Origin: Nitrososphaerota archaeon
Lineage (GTDB): Archaea > Thermoproteota > Nitrososphaeria > Nitrososphaerales > UBA57
Length of the DNA: 32,000 nucleotides
Direction: 5' to 3'
Assembly (NCBI GenBank): GCA_002713205.1
Contig: PAVW01000017.1
Coordinates: 27,035-59,034, forward strand
Shown: one piece after another, positions 2,610 through 12,232 of the stretch
Layout: each line of letters opens with the position of its first letter
How positions within the stretch are numbered: the stretch's first letter is position 1
Notes under the pieces: generated by a model
What the model saw: the letters and a program-made list of their open reading frames with translations, nothing else
The model's database searches: none
Told to the model about the DNA's origin: nothing
Program-made: the position numbers and the translations under genes

Positions 2610-2676
2610 GATTGACTTGCATAAATATTTGTTTTCGGAAGGATAAGCTTTATTGTAATGTTGAATTAAAAATATT

Positions 2677-2767
2677 GGGCTCGTAGTTCAGCATGGATCA
2701 GGGCGTCGAGATAATTCACGCAAGCCTGCGAAGCCGAAGATCGTGGGTTCAAATCCCACCGGGCCCG
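2677..2767 (+). tRNA. tRNA-Arg (anticodon GCG) with a 15-nt non-canonical intron
   Basis: Acceptor stem GGGCTCG/CGGGCCC (one G-U pair), D stem GTTC/GGGC, T arm GTGGG-TTCAAAT-CCCAC, variable loop AGATC, discriminator G, no encoded CCA. Removing 2709-2723 gives anticodon stem TCGGC/GCCGA and loop CTGCGAA. The mature length is 76 nt. Confidence 0.8.
2709..2723 (+). other. tRNA intron at non-canonical position 29/30 (inside the 5' strand of the anticodon stem)
   Basis: Boundaries are inferred only from restoring a perfect 5-bp anticodon stem. The canonical 37/38 intron model does not yield any anticodon arm. I could not confirm a strict bulge-helix-bulge by eye. Confidence 0.55.
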
Positions 2768-2768
2768 T

Positions 2769-3044
2769 TCATTTCTTCCATAATACTATTTTATATTGAC
2801 CTGATCCTGATTTCCAGACACTATACTTTGAAATATATTCAATGACTGATTGAGGCACTGCTTTGGTGGCCATTACATGATCAGTTTCTATAATAATTAC
2901 ATCATTTTCGATTTTTTGAATTTGTTCACGTGCTACTATTTGTGGATAAGGACATACTTCACCATCCATATTGATTATTTTTGCCGTTTTTTCTAATTGC
3001 TTGATTTCTTCATTAGAAATTTCTATTTCAGTTACCATAATCAT
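2769..3044 (-). CDS. TusA/SirA-family sulfur carrier (YeeD/YedF-like partner of YeeE)
   Basis: 91-aa ORF with the CPYP (CPxP) active-site motif in GEVCPYPQIVAREQI. It sits 6 nt downstream of the YeeE/YedE gene on the same strand. Confidence 0.8.
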   Translation of the reverse strand: MIMVTEIEISNEEIKQLEKTAKIINMDGEVCPYPQIVAREQIQKIENDVIIIETDHVMATKAVPQSVIEYISKYSVWKSGSGQYKIVLWKK

Positions 3045-3050
3045 TCACCA

Positions 3051-4148
3051 TTAAATCGCACATCCAACTTTTCTAAACATCCAGTGTGTTGCTATATAAA
3101 CTCCAAGTACTAGACCTAACGATGTTACAAATCCAGACACGGAAAGAAAAGCTAGACCACTGAATGTATTACTTATGTTACAACCAGGAGCCATTCTAGA
3201 TCCAAAACCCATGAGCATGCCGCCTATTATTGCATTTTGCACCCTATTCTTTTTAATCATTCTTATTTTAAAATCTCCACTGAAATATGCAGATATAAAA
3301 GAACCAAAAATTAAAAATAATAACATTATCATATCTAGACTTATGGAAAAATTTCCTCCTGAAAAAACAACATTATTCCAGTAGATATTTTCTTGCAATG
3401 CTTCCATTCCAATTATATTGCTATACGTTAAACCTACCCATCTAGCTTGAGGACCCGTAACACTAAGTGTCCCCCAAACTATAAACCATAATGTTGCAAA
3501 AATTCCCATTCCAAAACCAACAATTTTTGCATCCCAAGCTGATTGTAGGTTGTTGATAGAAATAGATGAAATATTAAATTTTGATATATTTGTAATTAAA
3601 CCCAATTGTTGTTTCTTTTTCAAATATAATACACATGATAGTATGATCAAAATCGGAACAAGTACTGATGTTTGCCCTAAACTTTCAATTAAGCTAAATC
3701 CTTCGAATATTTGTAATGGAGTGAAGAAATATGGAAAGAAAAAGATTGAAAATAAAGATGCAAAAATTACATAACCTGCACATGCTGATATGAGCAGTAA
3801 CCAGTAGTGTAAGTATCCTTCCCCTGCTCTATACAGTGTACCTGATGCACAACCTCCTCCATATACCATTCCGATTCCGAATACAAATCCACCTATTATG
3901 TTGCTTAATCCATAATTTGGTATCCAAAAATGCGAATTTGAAACTCCTAATGAATATGCTATGCTTGTACCTAACATCATGGTTATAATTCCAATTAATA
4001 GACCATACAGTACTCTAGTATCTTTGAATGCTACATAATCTCTTAACGCACTAGTAAAACAAAATCTTCCTTTTTGTAATAATACTCCAAATCCTATTCC
4101 AATTATAATCGTTAAAATTAAACTTAATAATCCTGAATATTCAATCAA
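3051..4148 (-). CDS. yeeE: YeeE/YedE-family thiosulfate / sulfur-compound transporter
   Basis: 365-aa polytopic membrane protein. It carries the three conserved Cys motifs of the family: GRFCFTSA, GGGCASG and APGCNIS. Confidence 0.85.
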   Translation of the reverse strand: MIEYSGLLSLILTIIIGIGFGVLLQKGRFCFTSALRDYVAFKDTRVLYGLLIGIITMMLGTSIAYSLGVSNSHFWIPNYGLSNIIGGFVFGIGMVYGGGCASGTLYRAGEGYLHYWLLLISACAGYVIFASLFSIFFFPYFFTPLQIFEGFSLIESLGQTSVLVPILIILSCVLYLKKKQQLGLITNISKFNISSISINNLQSAWDAKIVGFGMGIFATLWFIVWGTLSVTGPQARWVGLTYSNIIGMEALQENIYWNNVVFSGGNFSISLDMIMLLFLIFGSFISAYFSGDFKIRMIKKNRVQNAIIGGMLMGFGSRMAPGCNISNTFSGLAFLSVSGFVTSLGLVLGVYIATHWMFRKVGCAI

Positions 4149-4153
4149 TTATA

Positions 4154-5296
4154 TTATCCTCCACAGTTGAAATTAGCGCCTATTACTTTCCTAGCTTCAG
4201 TATTTGGACCACTTTTACCTGATTCTCCCATTATATTAAAAAACTGGACATTATGAGGACCATTTCCAGTTTCCAAGACTGTTACTATTTCCATTTTCTG
4301 TATGTCTATTATTGATACGGTAGCATCACCACTATTAGTTACATATGCAAATTTTCCTTCAGGATCTATATCGATATTATGTGGAGATTTACCTGTTTCC
4401 AATTCCTTTATTATTTCTAGTGTTTTTACATCAATTATTAATAATTTATTCATTTCAGGTATGGTGACAAGTAAATTCTTATCATCTTTTGTCACTGCTA
4501 ATCCATGAGGTGTTGATTCTAATATTATCTCACCGGGCTCTACAAAACGAAAATTTGCCCTACCAAAAATTCTATCTAAAATATCATCTAATACTAATAT
4601 TCTAGCTGGTATTTTTCGTATTTTATCGTCTACTTCTGCCGTCCCAATAAAGATTTTCTTATTATTATGGCCTGAAACTATCATCAAAGGTTCAGATTTC
4701 AACCTGATATTCTTCACAACTTTTTCTTCATTAATATCAATAAATGATAAAGTTCTAGATTTTGTATTTGTTACAACAGCTATATCATCATAACGTGCTA
4801 CATGGTGAGGTGCTTCCTGTACTCTTATTTCTGAAATTATTCTATCGGAAGTCGTATTCAGTAAAATTAATGAATTCGTATCTCTGCTAACAACAAAAAA
4901 CACTTCTTCTTTTTCATCAAATATGCCTGCATGTTGAATATTTTCACCTATGGGGATCTTGTATTTTATTTCTAGCGTTTGTGGATTTAATACTAGTATT
5001 TCAGATTGTCCATGATGAATTAAATATAGTTTGTTAAGTTTACTATTGAAATGCGCACCATACTGACCAGAGCTAATTTCTAATGGTATTTCCGTTACAA
5101 TATTAAAATTAATTGGATCAACTATAGTGACTGTTCCTGATATAGTATTAAATATCACCGCTTCATATGTATTGGATTCATTTGATATCGAATGGTAAAT
5201 GAAAGTTCCACCAATCAAAAATCCTATTACTAGACCTGTTAATAGAGCCGCTCTAATGAGGAACTTCTTATTTCCAGTCTTTGACAACTTTTCCAC
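4154..5296 (-). CDS. membrane-anchored YVTN-repeat beta-propeller protein, predicted extracytoplasmic
   Basis: GTG start. The N-terminus MEKLSKTGNKK followed by FLIRAALLTGLVIGFLIGGTFIY looks like a signal anchor. About 40-residue repeats follow (for example KFAYVTNSGDATVSIIDIQKMEIV, LLVTIPEMNKLLIIDVKTLEI). The C-terminus ends ...KVIGANFNCGG. Confidence 0.75.
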   Translation of the reverse strand: MEKLSKTGNKKFLIRAALLTGLVIGFLIGGTFIYHSISNESNTYEAVIFNTISGTVTIVDPINFNIVTEIPLEISSGQYGAHFNSKLNKLYLIHHGQSEILVLNPQTLEIKYKIPIGENIQHAGIFDEKEEVFFVVSRDTNSLILLNTTSDRIISEIRVQEAPHHVARYDDIAVVTNTKSRTLSFIDINEEKVVKNIRLKSEPLMIVSGHNNKKIFIGTAEVDDKIRKIPARILVLDDILDRIFGRANFRFVEPGEIILESTPHGLAVTKDDKNLLVTIPEMNKLLIIDVKTLEIIKELETGKSPHNIDIDPEGKFAYVTNSGDATVSIIDIQKMEIVTVLETGNGPHNVQFFNIMGESGKSGPNTEARKVIGANFNCGG

Positions 5297-5319
5297 TATT
5301 GATTTACTTTATTATTTAT

Positions 5320-6504
5320 TTAAAACTGTTTCAGATCCACAGGAACTATTTTTGATGGACTTTGTGGCAGTGCTATACTGTCTAATTTTTTAAATGAACC
5401 TACTTCAAAGACATCAATTGAACTATTGCCTCCATTAGGTACATATGCAAGACTACTATCTGGACTGAACGCTGGATGACCTGAATTTTCGATTTCAATC
5501 TTTGTAACTTCCTCGAGACTTTCCGTGTCATATACTATTGATGCTGGTCCAGTTCTAACTAACACATATCTTCCATCAGGAGTAAATTCGCTAGTTCTTG
5601 GTGGTGTTTCCACCAATGGAAATCTTTTTACTACCTCTTTTGCTTTAATATCCCAAACCATTTCTTCTGCATCTGTATTCTTAAATCCACCAACATTTGA
5701 CCAATTTCCTGCTGAATTTACTTCAATGAATGCCAAATCATTGTTTGGAGAAATTGTTATCATGCTTCCTCCCCAATCTGAATACTCTGTTGCTAAATGC
5801 TCTTCCACAGTGAAACTATTCGTATCAATTACTGTTAGTAAACTTTCTAGTTGGTTAGTAGTCCATAGTTTGTTATCTGGACCTATTGCAACATCACAAC
5901 AAAACTTTGGTACAGGGAGTTCACCTACTATCTCTCCACTCTGGAGATCAACTTTATAGATTATTGAAGGGTCTACATCTGAAAATGGAATTTCAAATTC
6001 TTCCCTTGCCGCATTAAATTGCTCATCCGAAAATTTCTTAGCAACTAATAGATTCAAAAAATATCCATATTTCCCATCTACATCAGTCTCTGCTAATGCA
6101 AATCTCCATCTTCCTTCTAATGGTATTTCTGTTAACTTCTCATTTGTTGACGGATTTACTTGATATACCGTAGCTTTTCCACCAGCTCTTCCAAGCCCCC
6201 AAATATTTCCATTTTTATCTGGATAGTGATTGGCCCAGTCTACTCTTCCTGCTTCTGCTATCCAAGTAGGTCCTGATGAAGCTAGTAATTTACCTAACGC
6301 TAAATCAATTGTAGCAATTGAACCTTCGGCGCCAAAGACATAGCCTAAAGCACCTTTTTCTTGTTTGAGTTGTTCTAATTCTTGTTCTAATGGGGCTATT
6401 TGGGATCTGTTGGAGAGATAACCTGCACCTCCAATTCCGATACCTACTACGCCTCCGGCTAAATATTTAATGAAATCTCTTCTATTCACATTTTTGGCTG
6501 TCAT
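5320..6504 (-). CDS. Tat-signal beta-propeller-like protein
   Basis: The N-terminus NRRDFIKYLAGGVVGIGIGGAGYL matches the twin-arginine motif (S/T-R-R-x-F-L-K) plus an h-region. The body has propeller-like repeats (LAYVPNGGNSSIDVFEV, LLTVIDTNSFTV) and a vicinal Cys pair, KFCCDVAIG. Confidence 0.6.
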   Translation of the reverse strand: MTAKNVNRRDFIKYLAGGVVGIGIGGAGYLSNRSQIAPLEQELEQLKQEKGALGYVFGAEGSIATIDLALGKLLASSGPTWIAEAGRVDWANHYPDKNGNIWGLGRAGGKATVYQVNPSTNEKLTEIPLEGRWRFALAETDVDGKYGYFLNLLVAKKFSDEQFNAAREEFEIPFSDVDPSIIYKVDLQSGEIVGELPVPKFCCDVAIGPDNKLWTTNQLESLLTVIDTNSFTVEEHLATEYSDWGGSMITISPNNDLAFIEVNSAGNWSNVGGFKNTDAEEMVWDIKAKEVVKRFPLVETPPRTSEFTPDGRYVLVRTGPASIVYDTESLEEVTKIEIENSGHPAFSPDSSLAYVPNGGNSSIDVFEVGSFKKLDSIALPQSPSKIVPVDLKQF

Positions 6505-6571
6505 TTATGGCGTTATATAATGCCGTTATATTTATATAGTTTTCGTCTATTGATTAATTTACGGTAATTAG
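6505..6571. promoter_or_regulatory. divergent promoter region of the sulfur-trafficking divergon
   Basis: 67-nt intergenic spacer. TATA-like TTTATATA lies at 6531-6538, about 34 nt upstream of the ATG at 6572 and, read on the other strand, 26-35 nt upstream of the start at 6504. Direct repeat CGTTATAT occurs at 6511-6518 and 6524-6531. Confidence 0.4.
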
Positions 6572-8008
6572 ATGAGTACTAGACAAGAATTTTGGGATAA
6601 TGTTTCCAAGTATAGAGAAATGGGTATGGATCCGTTGCGTTGGGTAGCAGGTTGTGCTGTTAAGGTAGATCTTAATTCAGTTGTTTATCCTACTCTTCAT
6701 AATATAAAACCAAGTCTAAAACAAATGGGAATTTCTTTAGGCGCAAGAGTAGATGCTGATATATTTCCCCTCGTTGGAGATGGACCTATAATTAATCGAA
6801 GAATTTATGATCCATTTTCTACTAGTATTGATACTGAGGATTTAAAAAAAATTAATCCTAAACGTGCAATTTCACTTCTCCAGGTCTTTCAAAAAAACGC
6901 TGAAAAACAAGAAAAATTTGAAGCGTTGTTGATCAGTCTTTATACATCTATATCAAAATCAAATGTTCATTTTTCTGTTGGAAAAGGGCATTCTATAATA
7001 ACACCAGACAAAGAGGCCGAATTTGCACTTTTTGATTTTATTTCTTATGAAGAAGGTCAAACAGACGGTTATTGTTTATCAAATAATGATACTATTCAAA
7101 TTATTGATCCTACTGCAGATCCTTCATCTGAACAACAAACTAATGTAGCAGTATCGAATTCTCTCAATGATTTAATAACATTGGGTTGTTTTGAAGAATT
7201 GAAAGTTTTACCAGTTGTAGATGCACCAAACCAAGAAATTGAAACACAAATTCTAAAAAATATGACAAGTTTTGCAACTAAATATAATATTGAATTAATT
7301 CCCGCAGAATCTCCTAAACGTAGTAAATTACTAATTGGCGCTACATTATTTGGTTCATTACAAAAAGAACCTCCGACTAAGTTAGATTTGTTGGATTCTG
7401 ATATGAAAATTCTCGTTACGCGACCATTTGGTGATCTAGCTCCTATTAACGTATTCTTATCATGTGTAGCGGATGACACTTTTCTTAAAGACCTTGAAGC
7501 TACTGGATATGGTCTTAAAGATGTTCAGAAGGCTAAAGATTCAGTTATTAAAACTATGAGTGAACCTAATCTCAAAGTCGCAAAAATTATTAATAAATAC
7601 CTCCCTGATTTTGGAAGTGACTTTAATGTTCAAGAACATATTCTAGCAACTGGAGACCTTTCAGGTCCTGGTATAATGATCTTCAAGGAACATGCAGATA
7701 ATGCAAATGTGGATATATCTCTTGATAATTTACCTTTGCAATATCCAGAATTTGTCAAATACGCTACCGAAAATTTCTTAATGGATAATGCAACTGCTGG
7801 GACTAATGGAGCTGTTGCTATAATTGCTAGTTCTAATATTATTGGAAATATTAAGACTGATTTAGCTAAAGAAGGATATGATCCTCGACTTGTAGGTACT
7901 ATACTTGGCAAAGGTACTGGCAATGTTCGTGTTGGAAAGAATGTTAAAGATATGATTGCATCGCAAGCTTTATTGGATGATTTGGATATAACCGGGAATG
8001 AAAATTGA
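6572..8008 (+). CDS. SelD-like PurM-superfamily protein (selenophosphate-synthetase homolog, atypically long)
   Basis: 478 aa. The N-terminal loop VAGCAVKV aligns by eye with SelD GAGCGCKI (Cys28 and Lys31 correspond to E. coli Cys17 and Lys20). Other by-eye matches: VAVSNSLNDLITLG to AATNAISDIFAMGG, ATGDLSGPGI to TDVTGFGL, and NATAGTNGAVAIIAS to PQTSGGLLLAV. There appears to be an extra insertion of about 100 residues after the N-terminal loop. Confidence 0.6.
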   Translation: MSTRQEFWDNVSKYREMGMDPLRWVAGCAVKVDLNSVVYPTLHNIKPSLKQMGISLGARVDADIFPLVGDGPIINRRIYDPFSTSIDTEDLKKINPKRAISLLQVFQKNAEKQEKFEALLISLYTSISKSNVHFSVGKGHSIITPDKEAEFALFDFISYEEGQTDGYCLSNNDTIQIIDPTADPSSEQQTNVAVSNSLNDLITLGCFEELKVLPVVDAPNQEIETQILKNMTSFATKYNIELIPAESPKRSKLLIGATLFGSLQKEPPTKLDLLDSDMKILVTRPFGDLAPINVFLSCVADDTFLKDLEATGYGLKDVQKAKDSVIKTMSEPNLKVAKIINKYLPDFGSDFNVQEHILATGDLSGPGIMIFKEHADNANVDISLDNLPLQYPEFVKYATENFLMDNATAGTNGAVAIIASSNIIGNIKTDLAKEGYDPRLVGTILGKGTGNVRVGKNVKDMIASQALLDDLDITGNEN

Positions 8009-8255
8009 TTTGAGTAAACAATCTAACATAAAAACACTGGATTTAAAAGGTCAGATTTGTCCTTGGCCGGTTATTTTTACAATGAAAGAACTGCAGAAAA
8101 TGAACGATGGTGACATTCTTAAAGTTACAATAGATCATTTACCTTCTACGTTAAATATACCTGCAGCTGCTTCAAAGGAGGGCAATGAGGTTGTTAGTTC
8201 TACCGAGATTGGTGATGGTGTTTTTCAAATTGAAATTAAACACAATATAATCTAG
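7998..8255 (+). CDS. tusA: TusA-family sulfur carrier protein
   Basis: 85 aa with LDLKGQICPWPVIFTMKEL (CPxP motif). The start overlaps the SelD-like stop by 11 nt. Confidence 0.8.
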   Translation: MKIDLSKQSNIKTLDLKGQICPWPVIFTMKELQKMNDGDILKVTIDHLPSTLNIPAAASKEGNEVVSSTEIGDGVFQIEIKHNII

Positions 8256-8281
8256 TAATCTGTTTAACTAGGTGTTGAAAA

Positions 8282-8509
8282 TTGAAAATCGATAGATCGT
8301 TAGATGTTAAAGGTCTTGTTTGTCCTGTTCCTGTACTGAAGACTAAACAAATTATATCTAAAATGAATTCTGGCCAGATTCTTGAAATTTTAGCTACAGA
8401 TAAAGCAGCTAAAGATGACATTCCATCTTGGGCACAACGAGAAGGACATGATGTTTTAGATGTTGCCGAACATGAAAATATTTTCACATTTTATTTAAGG
8501 AAGAAGTAA
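8282..8509 (+). CDS. tusA: TusA-family sulfur carrier protein (tandem paralog)
   Basis: 75 aa, TTG start. LDVKGLVCPVPVLKTKQ and the ATDKAAKDDIPSWAQREGH layout are classic TusA/SirA. Confidence 0.85.
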   Translation: MKIDRSLDVKGLVCPVPVLKTKQIISKMNSGQILEILATDKAAKDDIPSWAQREGHDVLDVAEHENIFTFYLRKK

Positions 8510-8511
8510 CT

Positions 8512-9315
8512 ATGACTAATATATTAGTGTCTAGTGAATGGGTCAAAGATCATCTTGATGATGAACATTTGATTTTTTTTGATATTCGTTCTCCTCGTGA
8601 ATACAACAATGGTCATTTACCCAATTCTGTTCTAATACCATATGAAAAAATCTTAGATTTTTCACCTGATACGCCATTTTTTGATATAGCTGATAAAACA
8701 ACTATTGAACAACTATTGGGAGAAAATGGTGTTGATAATGATACTAAAATTATTGTTTATGGTGACAAAGGTGGTTCAACCGCATCGAGGCTTTTTTGGA
8801 CCCTTTTATTTTATGGTGCTAATGTAAACTTCCTTGATATAAGTTATTCAAAATGGGTTAATTTAGGTTATCCTGTTACCACTGAAGTATATGCTCCTGG
8901 TAAAACTACTTTTATTGCTAATGAAAATCCAGATAATTTTCGTGTAAATAGCGATTATGTATTGTCAAAAATTCAAGATCAAGATACAATCATTCTTGAT
9001 ACTCGTAGTAAAGAAGAATATCAGGGATTAATTGCGGCAGGTCCAAAAGCTGGAAGAATTCCCAATTCTAAACACTTTCCATGGGAAAAGGCTATCGGTG
9101 TTGACGGTAATATATTTCACACTACTGAAGAACTTTCTAGTATATTTGATAATTATGGACTTCAAAATAAAGAAATAATATGTTATTGTCAGGTAGGAGA
9201 ACGTGCTTCTCATACTTTTCTTGCTTTGAAGATTTGTGGCTATTCAAATGTTAAAATATATGACAGATCTTTTGCAGATTGGAGTAATAATTCTAATATG
9301 CCAATTGAGATATAA
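8512..9315 (+). CDS. tandem-rhodanese sulfurtransferase (thiosulfate/3-mercaptopyruvate sulfurtransferase-like)
   Basis: 267 aa with two rhodanese domains. The C-terminal domain has the active-site loop CYCQVGERAS (CxxGxR). The gene starts 2 nt after the tusA paralog stop. Confidence 0.85.
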   Translation: MTNILVSSEWVKDHLDDEHLIFFDIRSPREYNNGHLPNSVLIPYEKILDFSPDTPFFDIADKTTIEQLLGENGVDNDTKIIVYGDKGGSTASRLFWTLLFYGANVNFLDISYSKWVNLGYPVTTEVYAPGKTTFIANENPDNFRVNSDYVLSKIQDQDTIILDTRSKEEYQGLIAAGPKAGRIPNSKHFPWEKAIGVDGNIFHTTEELSSIFDNYGLQNKEIICYCQVGERASHTFLALKICGYSNVKIYDRSFADWSNNSNMPIEI

Positions 9316-11062: not shown

Positions 11063-12232
11063 ATGTTCTTGGAAAACCTGCTTAATTCTCTCTTTTTACG
11101 CCAACTTTTGTTATTAGGATGGTTTTTAGTTTTTTTTTCTCGATTATTTACAGAATTCAAACTGAATTCTATTGGAATGCCAAATTCAAATATTTCTGAA
11201 GACTCGCCATCTGTTTCTGTAATAGTTCCTGCACGGAATGAAGAAAACAATTTAGGAAAATGCCTATTTTCATTACAGCAACAAGATTATCCTAATCTTG
11301 AATTTATTATTGTTGATGATTGTTCGATAGATAAAACTCGTAATATAATAAAAAAATATGTAAAAAATGATTCACGATTCAAGATTGTTGAGTTAGATGA
11401 CCAAGAACCAAATTGGGTAGGAAAGAATTGGGCATGTTATAACGGTTATCTACTTTCAACAGGAAAGTATTTGCTTTTTACAGATGCAGATACAGAACAT
11501 TCAACAAACTCAATCTCAACTTCAATTTCATATCTCCGTAAAAATGAACTTGACGTGTTGACTTTATTTCCAAAACTAATCTGCCAAGATTTCTGGAGTA
11601 AAGTGATAATGCCGTTTTTAATTTCTATGATATACATAGTTTATTCACCTATTCGTTTAAATTCCAAAAAAGATCCAATTGCATATTTGATTGGTGGATT
11701 TATACTCATCAAACGCACTGTTTATGAACAAATTGGTGGACATAAAACAGTTAAACATTCATTTGTTGAAGATAAAGCATTAGGGGAGATCCTTAAGACA
11801 TCTGGTTTTAATATAAAAATTCTTGAAGCTAAAAATAATCTTAAGTCTTTTTCTAGAATTGGTTTTAAGCATAATTTTAATGCCATGCAACGTGCACTGT
11901 CAGGATCTATAGTTGCGCCAAATATTTTAATTGCTTTTCCTGTAATTATTTTTGGTTTTATTACCCTTATTATTCCTTATTGTTTATTTTTTTATGATCT
12001 TTATGGGTCTTATTCTTTAAATTTAATTTTTAGTTCATTAATTTTATTTTTTATATTATTGTCATATTTTTTAGAATTTAAAAATATTTTACACACCAAC
12101 AAAATATTTGTTTTTTTCCATCCATTATCTGCGTTAATTCAACTTTTTGCTCTATTTTATTGTACTGTTAAGGTTGCTTTAGGTTATGATTTTATTTGGC
12201 GTGACAGGAAATATAAAAAATTTAAAATGTAG
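11063..12232 (+). CDS. family-2 glycosyltransferase with membrane-spanning C-terminal region
   Basis: SVIVPARNEENNLGKCLFSLQQQDYPNLEFIIVDDCSIDKT and FTDADT (DxD) are GT2 hallmarks, and the C-terminal third is hydrophobic. An alternative start at M38 (11174) is possible. Confidence 0.8.
   Translation: MFLENLLNSLFLRQLLLLGWFLVFFSRLFTEFKLNSIGMPNSNISEDSPSVSVIVPARNEENNLGKCLFSLQQQDYPNLEFIIVDDCSIDKTRNIIKKYVKNDSRFKIVELDDQEPNWVGKNWACYNGYLLSTGKYLLFTDADTEHSTNSISTSISYLRKNELDVLTLFPKLICQDFWSKVIMPFLISMIYIVYSPIRLNSKKDPIAYLIGGFILIKRTVYEQIGGHKTVKHSFVEDKALGEILKTSGFNIKILEAKNNLKSFSRIGFKHNFNAMQRALSGSIVAPNILIAFPVIIFGFITLIIPYCLFFYDLYGSYSLNLIFSSLILFFILLSYFLEFKNILHTNKIFVFFHPLSALIQLFALFYCTVKVALGYDFIWRDRKYKKFKM

Follow-up and report, generated by a model that had tools for sequence, protein, structure and literature searches.

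The 32,000-nucleotide (nt) window analyzed here, a stretch of contig PAVW01000017.1 from a Nitrososphaerota archaeon, carries the gene of a SelD-like protein of 478 amino acids (aa), which opens an operon of sulfur-transfer genes. The protein is a full-length member of the NCBIfam family NF038049, which Li et al. described in 2014 as SelD-like. Its sequence and modeled structure point to an ATP-utilizing enzyme of the PurM superfamily, whose nearest characterized relative is selenophosphate synthetase (SelD). Judged from alignments, it appears to keep the mobile Gly-Cys-x-x-Lys loop of SelD, the predicted Mg-ATP-binding Asp and Asn residues, and the C-terminal domain. The best explanation for its role, one that we hold by analogy and with slightly better than even confidence, is the ATP-dependent activation of sulfur delivered by TusA, with thiophosphate as the product. 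The protein itself is not new, as the family already has a name and a curated model, and the sulfur/thiophosphate idea is already in the literature. What is added here is incremental, and consists of a wider phyletic and ecological range, a quantified conservation of the partner set, an invariant motif with K138 and H140, and a tentative duplication model. Coordinates below are positions in the window, and residues are numbered as in the 478-aa protein. The gene and its parts are the following.

6572..8008, + strand: SelD-like protein, 478 aa, ATG start (open reading frame calling, NCBIfam NF038049, AlphaFold and Foldseek)
6650..6664, + strand: mobile N-terminal loop G27-C28-A29-V30-K31 (GCAVK), equivalent of the SelD GCGCK (alignments)
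6668..7021, + strand: family-specific N-terminal module, residues 33-150, with R59/D61 (RxDAD), R76 and GKGHS (alignments, separate fold prediction)
6980..6997, + strand: GKGHSI motif, residues 137-142, with K138 and H140 (conservation counts)
7082..7180, + strand: core ATP/Mg motifs of a PurM-type N-domain, NNDT (D173), IIDP (D179), N196 and D200 (hhalign against a SelD profile)
7649..7666, + strand: TGDLSG motif (D362; GPG at 365-367) in the C-terminal domain, aligned to TDVTGFG of SelD

The assignment to NF038049 ("SelD-related putative sulfur metabolism protein") has an E-value of 8.5e-166 and a score of 552 bits, with the cut-off at 250, and it pairs residues 6-472 of the protein with positions 2-464 of the 465 in the model. 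A search of 5.8 billion proteins yielded 214 relatives of 462-496 aa, or of ~577-581 aa where an acylphosphatase is fused, and many of these bear the same NCBI name. The preliminary description of this DNA, made from the sequence, had called the protein atypically long. It does exceed E. coli SelD (347 aa) by ~130 aa, yet given the 465 positions of the model and the 462-496 aa of the relatives, 478 aa is ordinary for its own family and long only in comparison with SelD. The open reading frame (ORF) at 6572..8008 runs without an internal stop and, as had been stated, without an in-frame TGA; a selenocysteine-containing protein was rejected on that account, and a pseudogene or chance ORF was rejected as well. 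A Pfam scan gave no domain in the protein, and phmmer gave nothing for it in the Protein Data Bank (PDB). The family profile found only marginal HypE, PurM and SelD matches in the PDB, the best being HypE (E 0.0067), and no solved structure of a family member emerged from these phmmer and profile searches.

The family was described computationally by Li, Jiang, Ni, Liu and Zhang in 2014 (BMC Genomics 15:908; PMC4210487). They reported a conserved Cys, a C-x-x-K motif and Asp/Asn residues, and placed the family as a sister to SelD within the PurM/PurL/ThiL/HypE superfamily. They recorded SirA(TusA)-like, COG2210 "Prx-like" and rhodanese neighbors and an acylphosphatase fusion in Thermoproteales, and proposed a thiophosphate compound as the product (PMC4210487). 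The protein of the window shares with that family the full-length, above-cut-off match, the catalytic residues, the TusA and rhodanese neighbors, and the length class. It differs in that the window has neither an acylphosphatase nor a DsrE ("Prx-like") neighbor, and in its operon, which reads SelD-like, TusA, TusA, rhodanese and faces a divergently oriented YeeE-TusA pair. Literature searches on "SelD-like" with TusA, and on selenophosphate with TusA and Sulfolobales, found nothing, and the "SelD-like" protein of Atkinson et al. 2011 was set aside as a different, Haloarcula protein.

The hhalign comparison of the family profile with a small SelD profile (probability 99.7, E 2.7e-25) matches residues 187-459 with E. 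coli SelD 78-343, so that collinearity with SelD extends from residue 187 to the C-terminal end, and it aligns N196, D200 and D362 confidently with SelD N87, D91 and D227. At the N-terminus, GCGCK of E. coli SelD (C17, K20) aligns with GCAVK, in which C28 (codon 6653-6655) and K31 (codon 6662-6664) take the places of the Cys and the Lys and the second Cys is replaced by Val. This loop and the motifs DADIF (61-65), IIDPT (177-181), LNDLIT (198-203) and TGDLSG (360-365) lie where the preliminary description had put them. It had overlooked NNDT (171-174) and GKGHSI (137-142), both of them invariant in the family. D173 is the probable equivalent of SelD D68, from alignments of low confidence, and the equivalent of SelD D51 is ambiguous in the alignments, D61 or another residue being the candidates. 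The GGHS motif of SelD is missing from its canonical position, in the protein and in the family.

The fold tells the same story. The AlphaFold2 model (pLDDT 91.7, pTM 0.91) has the two-domain PurM architecture and matches SelD, HypE, ThiL and PurM at E-values of 5e-15 to 2e-9, with target-normalized TM-scores of 0.57-0.70. In the Foldseek ranking against the PDB, places 1 to 15 are all SelD (best 3u0o_A, E 4.9e-15), followed by HypE (~2e-12), ThiL and PurM. Residues 21-30, which hold the Cys loop, have a mean pLDDT of 63, the lowest block of the model save the C-terminal tail, and this is consistent with the mobile N-terminal loop of SelD. Among NCBIfam models of the PurM superfamily only those of SelD were matched, and none of HypE, ThiL or PurM. 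The SelD scores fell far below their cut-offs (PRK14105, 38.9 bits against 291, E 4.7e-10; TIGR00476, 15.5 against 125), and the identity to SelD is only 15-19%. Taken together, the NCBIfam, Foldseek and hhalign results leave the protein on the SelD branch to which it had been assigned, and not on that of ThiL or HypE. Compared with SelD of E. coli, Aquifex and human (SEPHS1), it has the PurM fold, the Gly-Cys-x-x-Lys loop and the equivalents of D68, N87, D91 and D227 in common. It differs by ~110 extra N-terminal residues with GKGHS and ~30 extra residues in the helices of the C-domain, by the Val in place of the second Cys of GCGCK, by the absence of the canonical GGHS, and by a gene context of sulfur carriers without selenium genes.

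Conservation was counted in 250 non-identical, near-full-length relatives. The two residues singled out in the preliminary description, C28 and K31, are conserved among these in 249/250 and 244/250, respectively. K138 and H140 (245/250 each) are conserved as strongly as the catalytic Cys and Lys, and the predicted metal- and ATP-binding residues follow closely (D173, 241/250; D200, 244/250; D362, 246/250; N196, 231/250). In a separate alignment of 33 sequences that spans several phyla, the invariant positions include G27, C28, V30, K31, V32, D33, R59, D61, GKGHSI, NNDT, D179, N196, N199, D200, H356, D362, GPG (365-367) and GTNG (410-413). Only 185 among 1.84 billion cluster representatives reach E <= 0.001 with the family profile. 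Six distant full-length relatives (P0140, P0157, P0175, P0207, P0213 and P0224) of 430-517 aa and ~20-31% identity, which score 92-250 bits against this profile, keep C28, K31, K138, H140, D173, D200, D362 and N412, and K138 and H140 are retained in 42/42 of the relatives below 250 bits. The retention of these residues in relatives at 92-250 bits indicates a superfamily wider than NF038049.

The surplus over SelD is concentrated near the N-terminus. About 110 of the extra residues precede residue 187, between the Cys loop and the helix 187-202, and ~30 more lie in helices 300-356; the confident hhalign match to SelD begins only at residue 187. An insertion at about residues 75-175 had been proposed earlier. 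The region was correct, but the extra stretch is not a passive insert, because the invariant GKGHS motif with Lys138 and His140 lies within it. Modeled alone, residues 33-150, which make up most of the additional length, fold with a pLDDT of 86 and a pTM of 0.76. This isolated module gave nothing in Pfam and no significant Foldseek match in the PDB (best E 0.1). Six of its seven best weak matches are SelD or PurM chains (50-62 aligned columns, rmsd 2.7-3.4 Å). A foreign inserted domain was rejected, there being no fold match outside the PurM family.

Weak evidence suggests that the module may have arisen as a tandem copy of the PurM-type N-domain that has since degenerated. In the full model the order beta-alpha-beta-alpha-beta-beta appears twice, at residues 73-158 and 164-263. 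In addition, hhalign matches the module weakly and collinearly with SelD residues 47-158, and a local profile alignment, likewise weak, places RVDADIF on RDDAAVY of SelD and FSVGKGHSI on ALAGGHSI. The score of copy 1 (56-160) against the SelD profile was 20.0, compared with 13.2 ± 3.2 for column-shuffled controls (z ~2, maximum shuffle 25.7), which is merely suggestive. The hhalign score of copy 1 against copy 2 (161-266) was 9.8, with column-shuffled controls at 11.6 ± 2.0, so that this comparison gives no sequence support for the duplication. Under a duplication, copy 1 would keep the DDAAV-like RxDAD and the GGHS-like GKGHS, and copy 2 the equivalents of D68, N87 and D91. A fuller version, in which tandem N-domains with split motifs form an intramolecular pseudo-dimeric site like that of large PurL, and in which the enzyme is the missing thiophosphate synthetase of mesophilic marine and hot-spring archaea, strikes us as doubtful. 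If true, the enzyme would belong to a sulfur counterpart of the YedE-YedF-SelD selenium module.

The gene stands among genes of sulfur carriers. The neighboring features of the window are these.

7998..8255, + strand: TusA-family sulfur carrier 1, 85 aa, Cys in a CPWP motif (Pfam TusA, E 5.8e-19)
8282..8509, + strand: TusA-family sulfur carrier 2, 75 aa, Cys in a CPVP motif (Pfam TusA, E 7.2e-25)
8512..9315, + strand: two-domain rhodanese sulfurtransferase (Pfam Rhodanese, E 3.7e-35, two stretches)
3051..4148, - strand: YeeE/YedE-family membrane transporter, 365 aa (Pfam Sulf_transp, E 6.2e-53)
2769..3044, - strand: TusA/YeeD-like protein, 91 aa, CPYP motif, directly downstream of the transporter gene
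4154..6504, - strand: two beta-propeller proteins of 380 and 394 aa (4154-5296 and 5320-6504; Pfam/NCBIfam YncE-like/YVTN repeats)
6516..6538, no strand assigned: conserved block TATAATGCCGTTATATTTATATA in the intergenic stretch 6505-6571, with a TATA-like box ~34 nt before the SelD-like ATG (locus comparison)

The SelD-like gene is the first of an operon that continues with TusA, TusA and rhodanese, and this operon is divergent from the pair of the YeeE-type transporter and the TusA/YeeD-like protein. The tight coupling to TusA carriers noted earlier is borne out by the stop codon of the SelD-like gene and the ATG of TusA1, which overlap by 11 nt (7998-8008). The two TusA genes are 26 nt apart, and only 2 nt separate the second from the rhodanese. 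In the rhodanese, the active-site Cys lies in the CQVGERA loop of the C-terminal domain, and the matching position of the N-terminal domain is an Asp. The transporter has Cys residues in three G-x-x-C-type loops, which, matched by eye and not by alignment, resemble the three essential cysteines of YeeE (PMC7449682). It aligns over its full length with models of the thiosulfate transporter TsuA, and its NCBIfam scores are all below cut-off: 131 against 400 and 114 against 645 for TsuA, and 158.9 against 350 for YedE (selen_YedE_FdhT). The best NCBIfam model for TusA1 is YedF, at 47.4 bits and below the cut-off of 79. Neither the selenium nor the thiosulfate equivalog cut-offs of NCBIfam are reached by the transporter or by the carriers of the window. 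The TusA/YeeD-like protein scores 28.0 bits with Pfam TusA, for which the cut-off is 28.6, and matches the YeeD model at E 1.1e-5.

We scanned 185,579 species genomes, which gave 97 loci, of which 80 were kept; the SelD-like gene was found in 76. The proteins encoded within 5 kb of it in these 76 loci were clustered and the recurrent clusters annotated. TusA is present in 60/76 loci, usually adjacent and co-directional, and this linkage is conserved across archaeal phyla. It lends substance to the earlier suggestion of a role outside canonical SelD chemistry. Such a role is not newly proposed, however, the same sulfur/thiophosphate idea being that of Li et al. An acylphosphatase is adjacent or fused in 40/76 loci, as a separate gene directly downstream in 30 (for example at 11410-11703 of locus L036) and as a fusion in 10 (fused examples are listed for L051, L068 and L072-L080). 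The fusions occur in Thermoproteales, as published, and the separate genes in Desulfurococcales, Pyrodictiaceae, Acidilobaceae, Ignisphaera and others. A six-frame search with an acylphosphatase HMM found none in the window, and the marine thaumarchaeal clade lacks it as well. Other recurrent neighbors are the YeeE/YedE-type transporter (25/76), rhodanese (24/76) and DsrE (8/76), and in smaller clades an SQR-like flavoprotein, a ThiF-family E1-like protein, a PALP (cysteine-synthase-like) enzyme and OsmC. The common order in Thermoprotei is YeeE, TusA, SelD-like, acylphosphatase, sometimes followed by a further TusA. The thaumarchaeal order is SelD-like, TusA, TusA, rhodanese, with two beta-propeller genes, YeeE and the TusA-like gene running divergently.

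Two of the rarer associations may point to a connection with cysteine synthesis or with thiocarboxylate sulfur transfer. A PALP-family gene adjoins the SelD-like gene on its upstream side in seven Caldisphaera/Acidilobus-type loci (L047-L049, L061 and L069-L071), and a ThiF-family E1-like gene is found near it in four loci (L017, L019, L060 and L062). A further locus, L012 (CBDCMH010000005.1, 406 kb), has the order SelD-like, TusA, rhodanese, acylphosphatase, TusA, with 55% identity to the protein of the window. It is flanked by Hdr-like CCG proteins, the alpha and beta subunits of ETF and an SQR-like flavoprotein. The contig is labeled as an "Acidobacteriota" metagenome-assembled genome (MAG), a label that its flanking genes do not allow to be verified; were it right, a family reported only from archaea would have a member in bacteria.

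The host differs from those described in 2014. Li et al. found the family only in Sulfolobales and Thermoproteales, with loss from Desulfurococcales (PMC4210487), and their hosts were hyperthermophilic, sulfur-reducing crenarchaea, whereas the window comes from a low-GC (30.6%) marine thaumarchaeon of a pSL12-like/heterotrophic lineage. The other genes of the window are archaeal housekeeping genes (RadA-like, NFACT-family, PdxS/PdxT, CTP synthase, archaeal coenzyme A pathway enzymes, and UbiA and glycosyltransferase proteins). The closest loci belong to MAGs of marine Thaumarchaeota/Nitrososphaerales (ASW2_bin45, ASW8_bin1, ATL, ALOHA, UBA223 and Langseth), with 79-83% protein identity and an identical gene order over more than 10 kb. 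The ASW bins are the pSL12-like/heterotrophic marine Thaumarchaeota described in 2019-2020, and because the nearest loci are of this kind the label of a hyperthermophilic sulfur reducer is too narrow for the family. Two papers on these marine heterotrophic Thaumarchaeota mention neither the gene cluster nor sulfur transfer. Members were also found in groundwater Thaumarchaeota, Halobacteria, Hydrothermarchaeales, Methanomethylicia, Geothermarchaeota and many Desulfurococcales MAGs. These occurrences contradict both the confinement to Sulfolobales and Thermoproteales and the loss from Desulfurococcales.

For the activation of TusA-delivered sulfur, the following course can be proposed. The YeeE-like transporter would import a reduced sulfur compound, most likely thiosulfate. 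YeeE is known to import thiosulfate, and YeeD, a TusA-like protein, to decompose it on a conserved Cys (PMC7449682, PMC11073785). The rhodanese, the YeeD-like TusA protein, or both would make a protein persulfide, to be relayed along the TusA carriers, and the sulfane sulfur would be passed to Cys28 on the flexible loop. Mg-ATP would be held by the Asp cluster (possibly D61, with D173, D200 and D362) and N196, and its gamma-phosphate positioned by Lys31, probably together with Lys138 and His140, which are specific to the family. The sulfur would then, by analogy with SelD, be phosphorylated to give thiophosphate, or an enzyme-bound phosphorylated persulfide, with AMP and Pi. The product would serve as an activated sulfide donor; in lineages with the adjoining or fused acylphosphatase, that enzyme may instead hydrolyze the product or an S-phospho intermediate.

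Several observations weigh against this proposal. E. coli SelD accepts sulfide poorly, so the SelD scaffold is no guarantee of sulfur chemistry. The conversion of a persulfide to thiophosphate needs two electrons, and no reductant is evident in the operon. The acylphosphatase that accompanies the SelD-like gene in 40 loci is missing from the window, so that it is either dispensable or the pathway differs by lineage. For the transporter and TusA1, the highest NCBIfam scores, both short of the cut-off, are those with YedE and YedF, models linked to selenium. An enzyme described as a thiophosphate synthase or synthetase was not found in the searchable literature, and reviews of 2022 and May 2026 still term the function of the SelD-like family speculative.

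The YedE and YedF scores count in favor of a selenium function. The protein could be a genuine selenium-activating enzyme, a divergent selenophosphate synthetase serving a selenium trait, for which the YeeE/YedE-like transporter and the TusA/YedF-like carriers deliver selenium. The catalytic set of SelD is fully kept, bacterial YedE and YedF co-occur with SelD (PMC5322559), and Li et al. do not completely exclude a selenium role (PMC4210487). The same authors point out, however, that the host lineages are without known selenium traits (PMC4210487), and the two scores lie far under the cut-offs of 350 and 79; the transporter aligns full-length with the TsuA models. Pfam and NCBIfam scans of the ORFs of the 32-kb window showed no selenium-related family, none of SelA/SelB/SepSecS, YbbB/MnmH or YqeB/YqeC being seen, and the recurrent neighbors are sulfur proteins (rhodanese, DsrE, SQR-like flavoprotein and Hdr-like CCG proteins). 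We consider a selenium enzyme unlikely. The bacterial modules YedE-YedF-SelD, for selenium, and YeeE-YeeD (TsuA-TsuB), for thiosulfate, likewise link a YeeE/YedE transporter with a TusA-fold carrier, and the former includes a SelD-type enzyme. Of the two, YeeE-YeeD, which supplies cysteine synthesis in bacteria, has no SelD-type enzyme.

The acylphosphatase association brings HypE into consideration, as it recalls the partnership of HypF and HypE. A HypE-like protein would use ATP to dehydrate or activate a group at Cys28 or at the Cys of TusA, with the acylphosphatase supplying or processing a carbamoyl- or acyl-phosphate, as the HypF domain does. Both proteins are PurM-fold ATP enzymes that act, or in the present case would act, on the sulfur of a flexible terminal Cys. 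The HypE structures are strong matches to the model, the best PDB match of the family profile is HypE, and the acylphosphatase-domain association is seen in many family members. Yet SelD ranks above HypE in the fold search and is alone in NCBIfam. The reactive Cys of HypE is at the extreme C-terminus, whereas the SelD-like protein ends in ...DITGNEN, has cysteines only at residues 28, 168, 206 and 298, and carries its invariant Cys in the SelD-type N-terminal CxxK loop. Among the annotated recurrent neighbor families, no carbamoyltransferase of the YrdC or Kae1 type was seen, and the window is without the acylphosphatase. These differences make a HypE-like activity distinctly improbable. Least probable by far is a scaffold or sensor without catalytic activity, which would do no more than bind TusA or a nucleotide: the reviews cited above and the loss of GGHS from its usual position could be read in its favor, but a GKGHS motif stands elsewhere in the chain, and the near-invariance of the metal- and ATP-binding residues and of the Cys/Lys loop, across phyla and down to ~20% identity, is the signature of an active enzyme.

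If the activation of sulfur as thiophosphate were confirmed, it would reveal how the machinery that activates selenium is related to a pathway for sulfur that runs parallel to it. A role as sulfur donor in biology has been proposed for thiophosphate, and the SelD-like family is the obvious candidate for its maker; to our knowledge, no thiophosphate-making enzyme is known. As the family occurs in the abundant Thaumarchaeota of the dark ocean and in several archaeal phyla, its function must suit cold, oxic, sulfur-poor water. The recurrent partner set of YeeE-type transporter, TusA, rhodanese and acylphosphatase defines the components for a reconstitution in vitro, and Lys138 and His140 are specific mutational targets to which SelD offers no counterpart.

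Some features of the locus fall outside this argument. The window and seven related loci of marine Thaumarchaeota (L001-L007) share the intergenic block TATAATGCCGTTATATTTATATA without a difference, although the encoded proteins are just ~80% identical; this conserved sequence is probably a divergent promoter or operator of the sulfur gene cluster. The beta-propeller pair keeps its position between the transporter and SelD-like genes only in marine thaumarchaeal loci. The second of the two carries a twin-arginine (TAT) signal (TIGR01409), and the pair might represent candidate extracytoplasmic partners for the sulfur substrate. An 83-aa antisense ORF over TusA2 (8236-8487, - strand) was rejected as an artefact; longest-ORF calling had favored it, and did likewise in four other loci. 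Abutting the end of the TusA-like gene, ARAGORN calls a 93-nt "tRNA-???" at 2676-2768 (+ strand), for which it gives no definite anticodon; this may be an archaeal tRNA with an intron or a spurious prediction.

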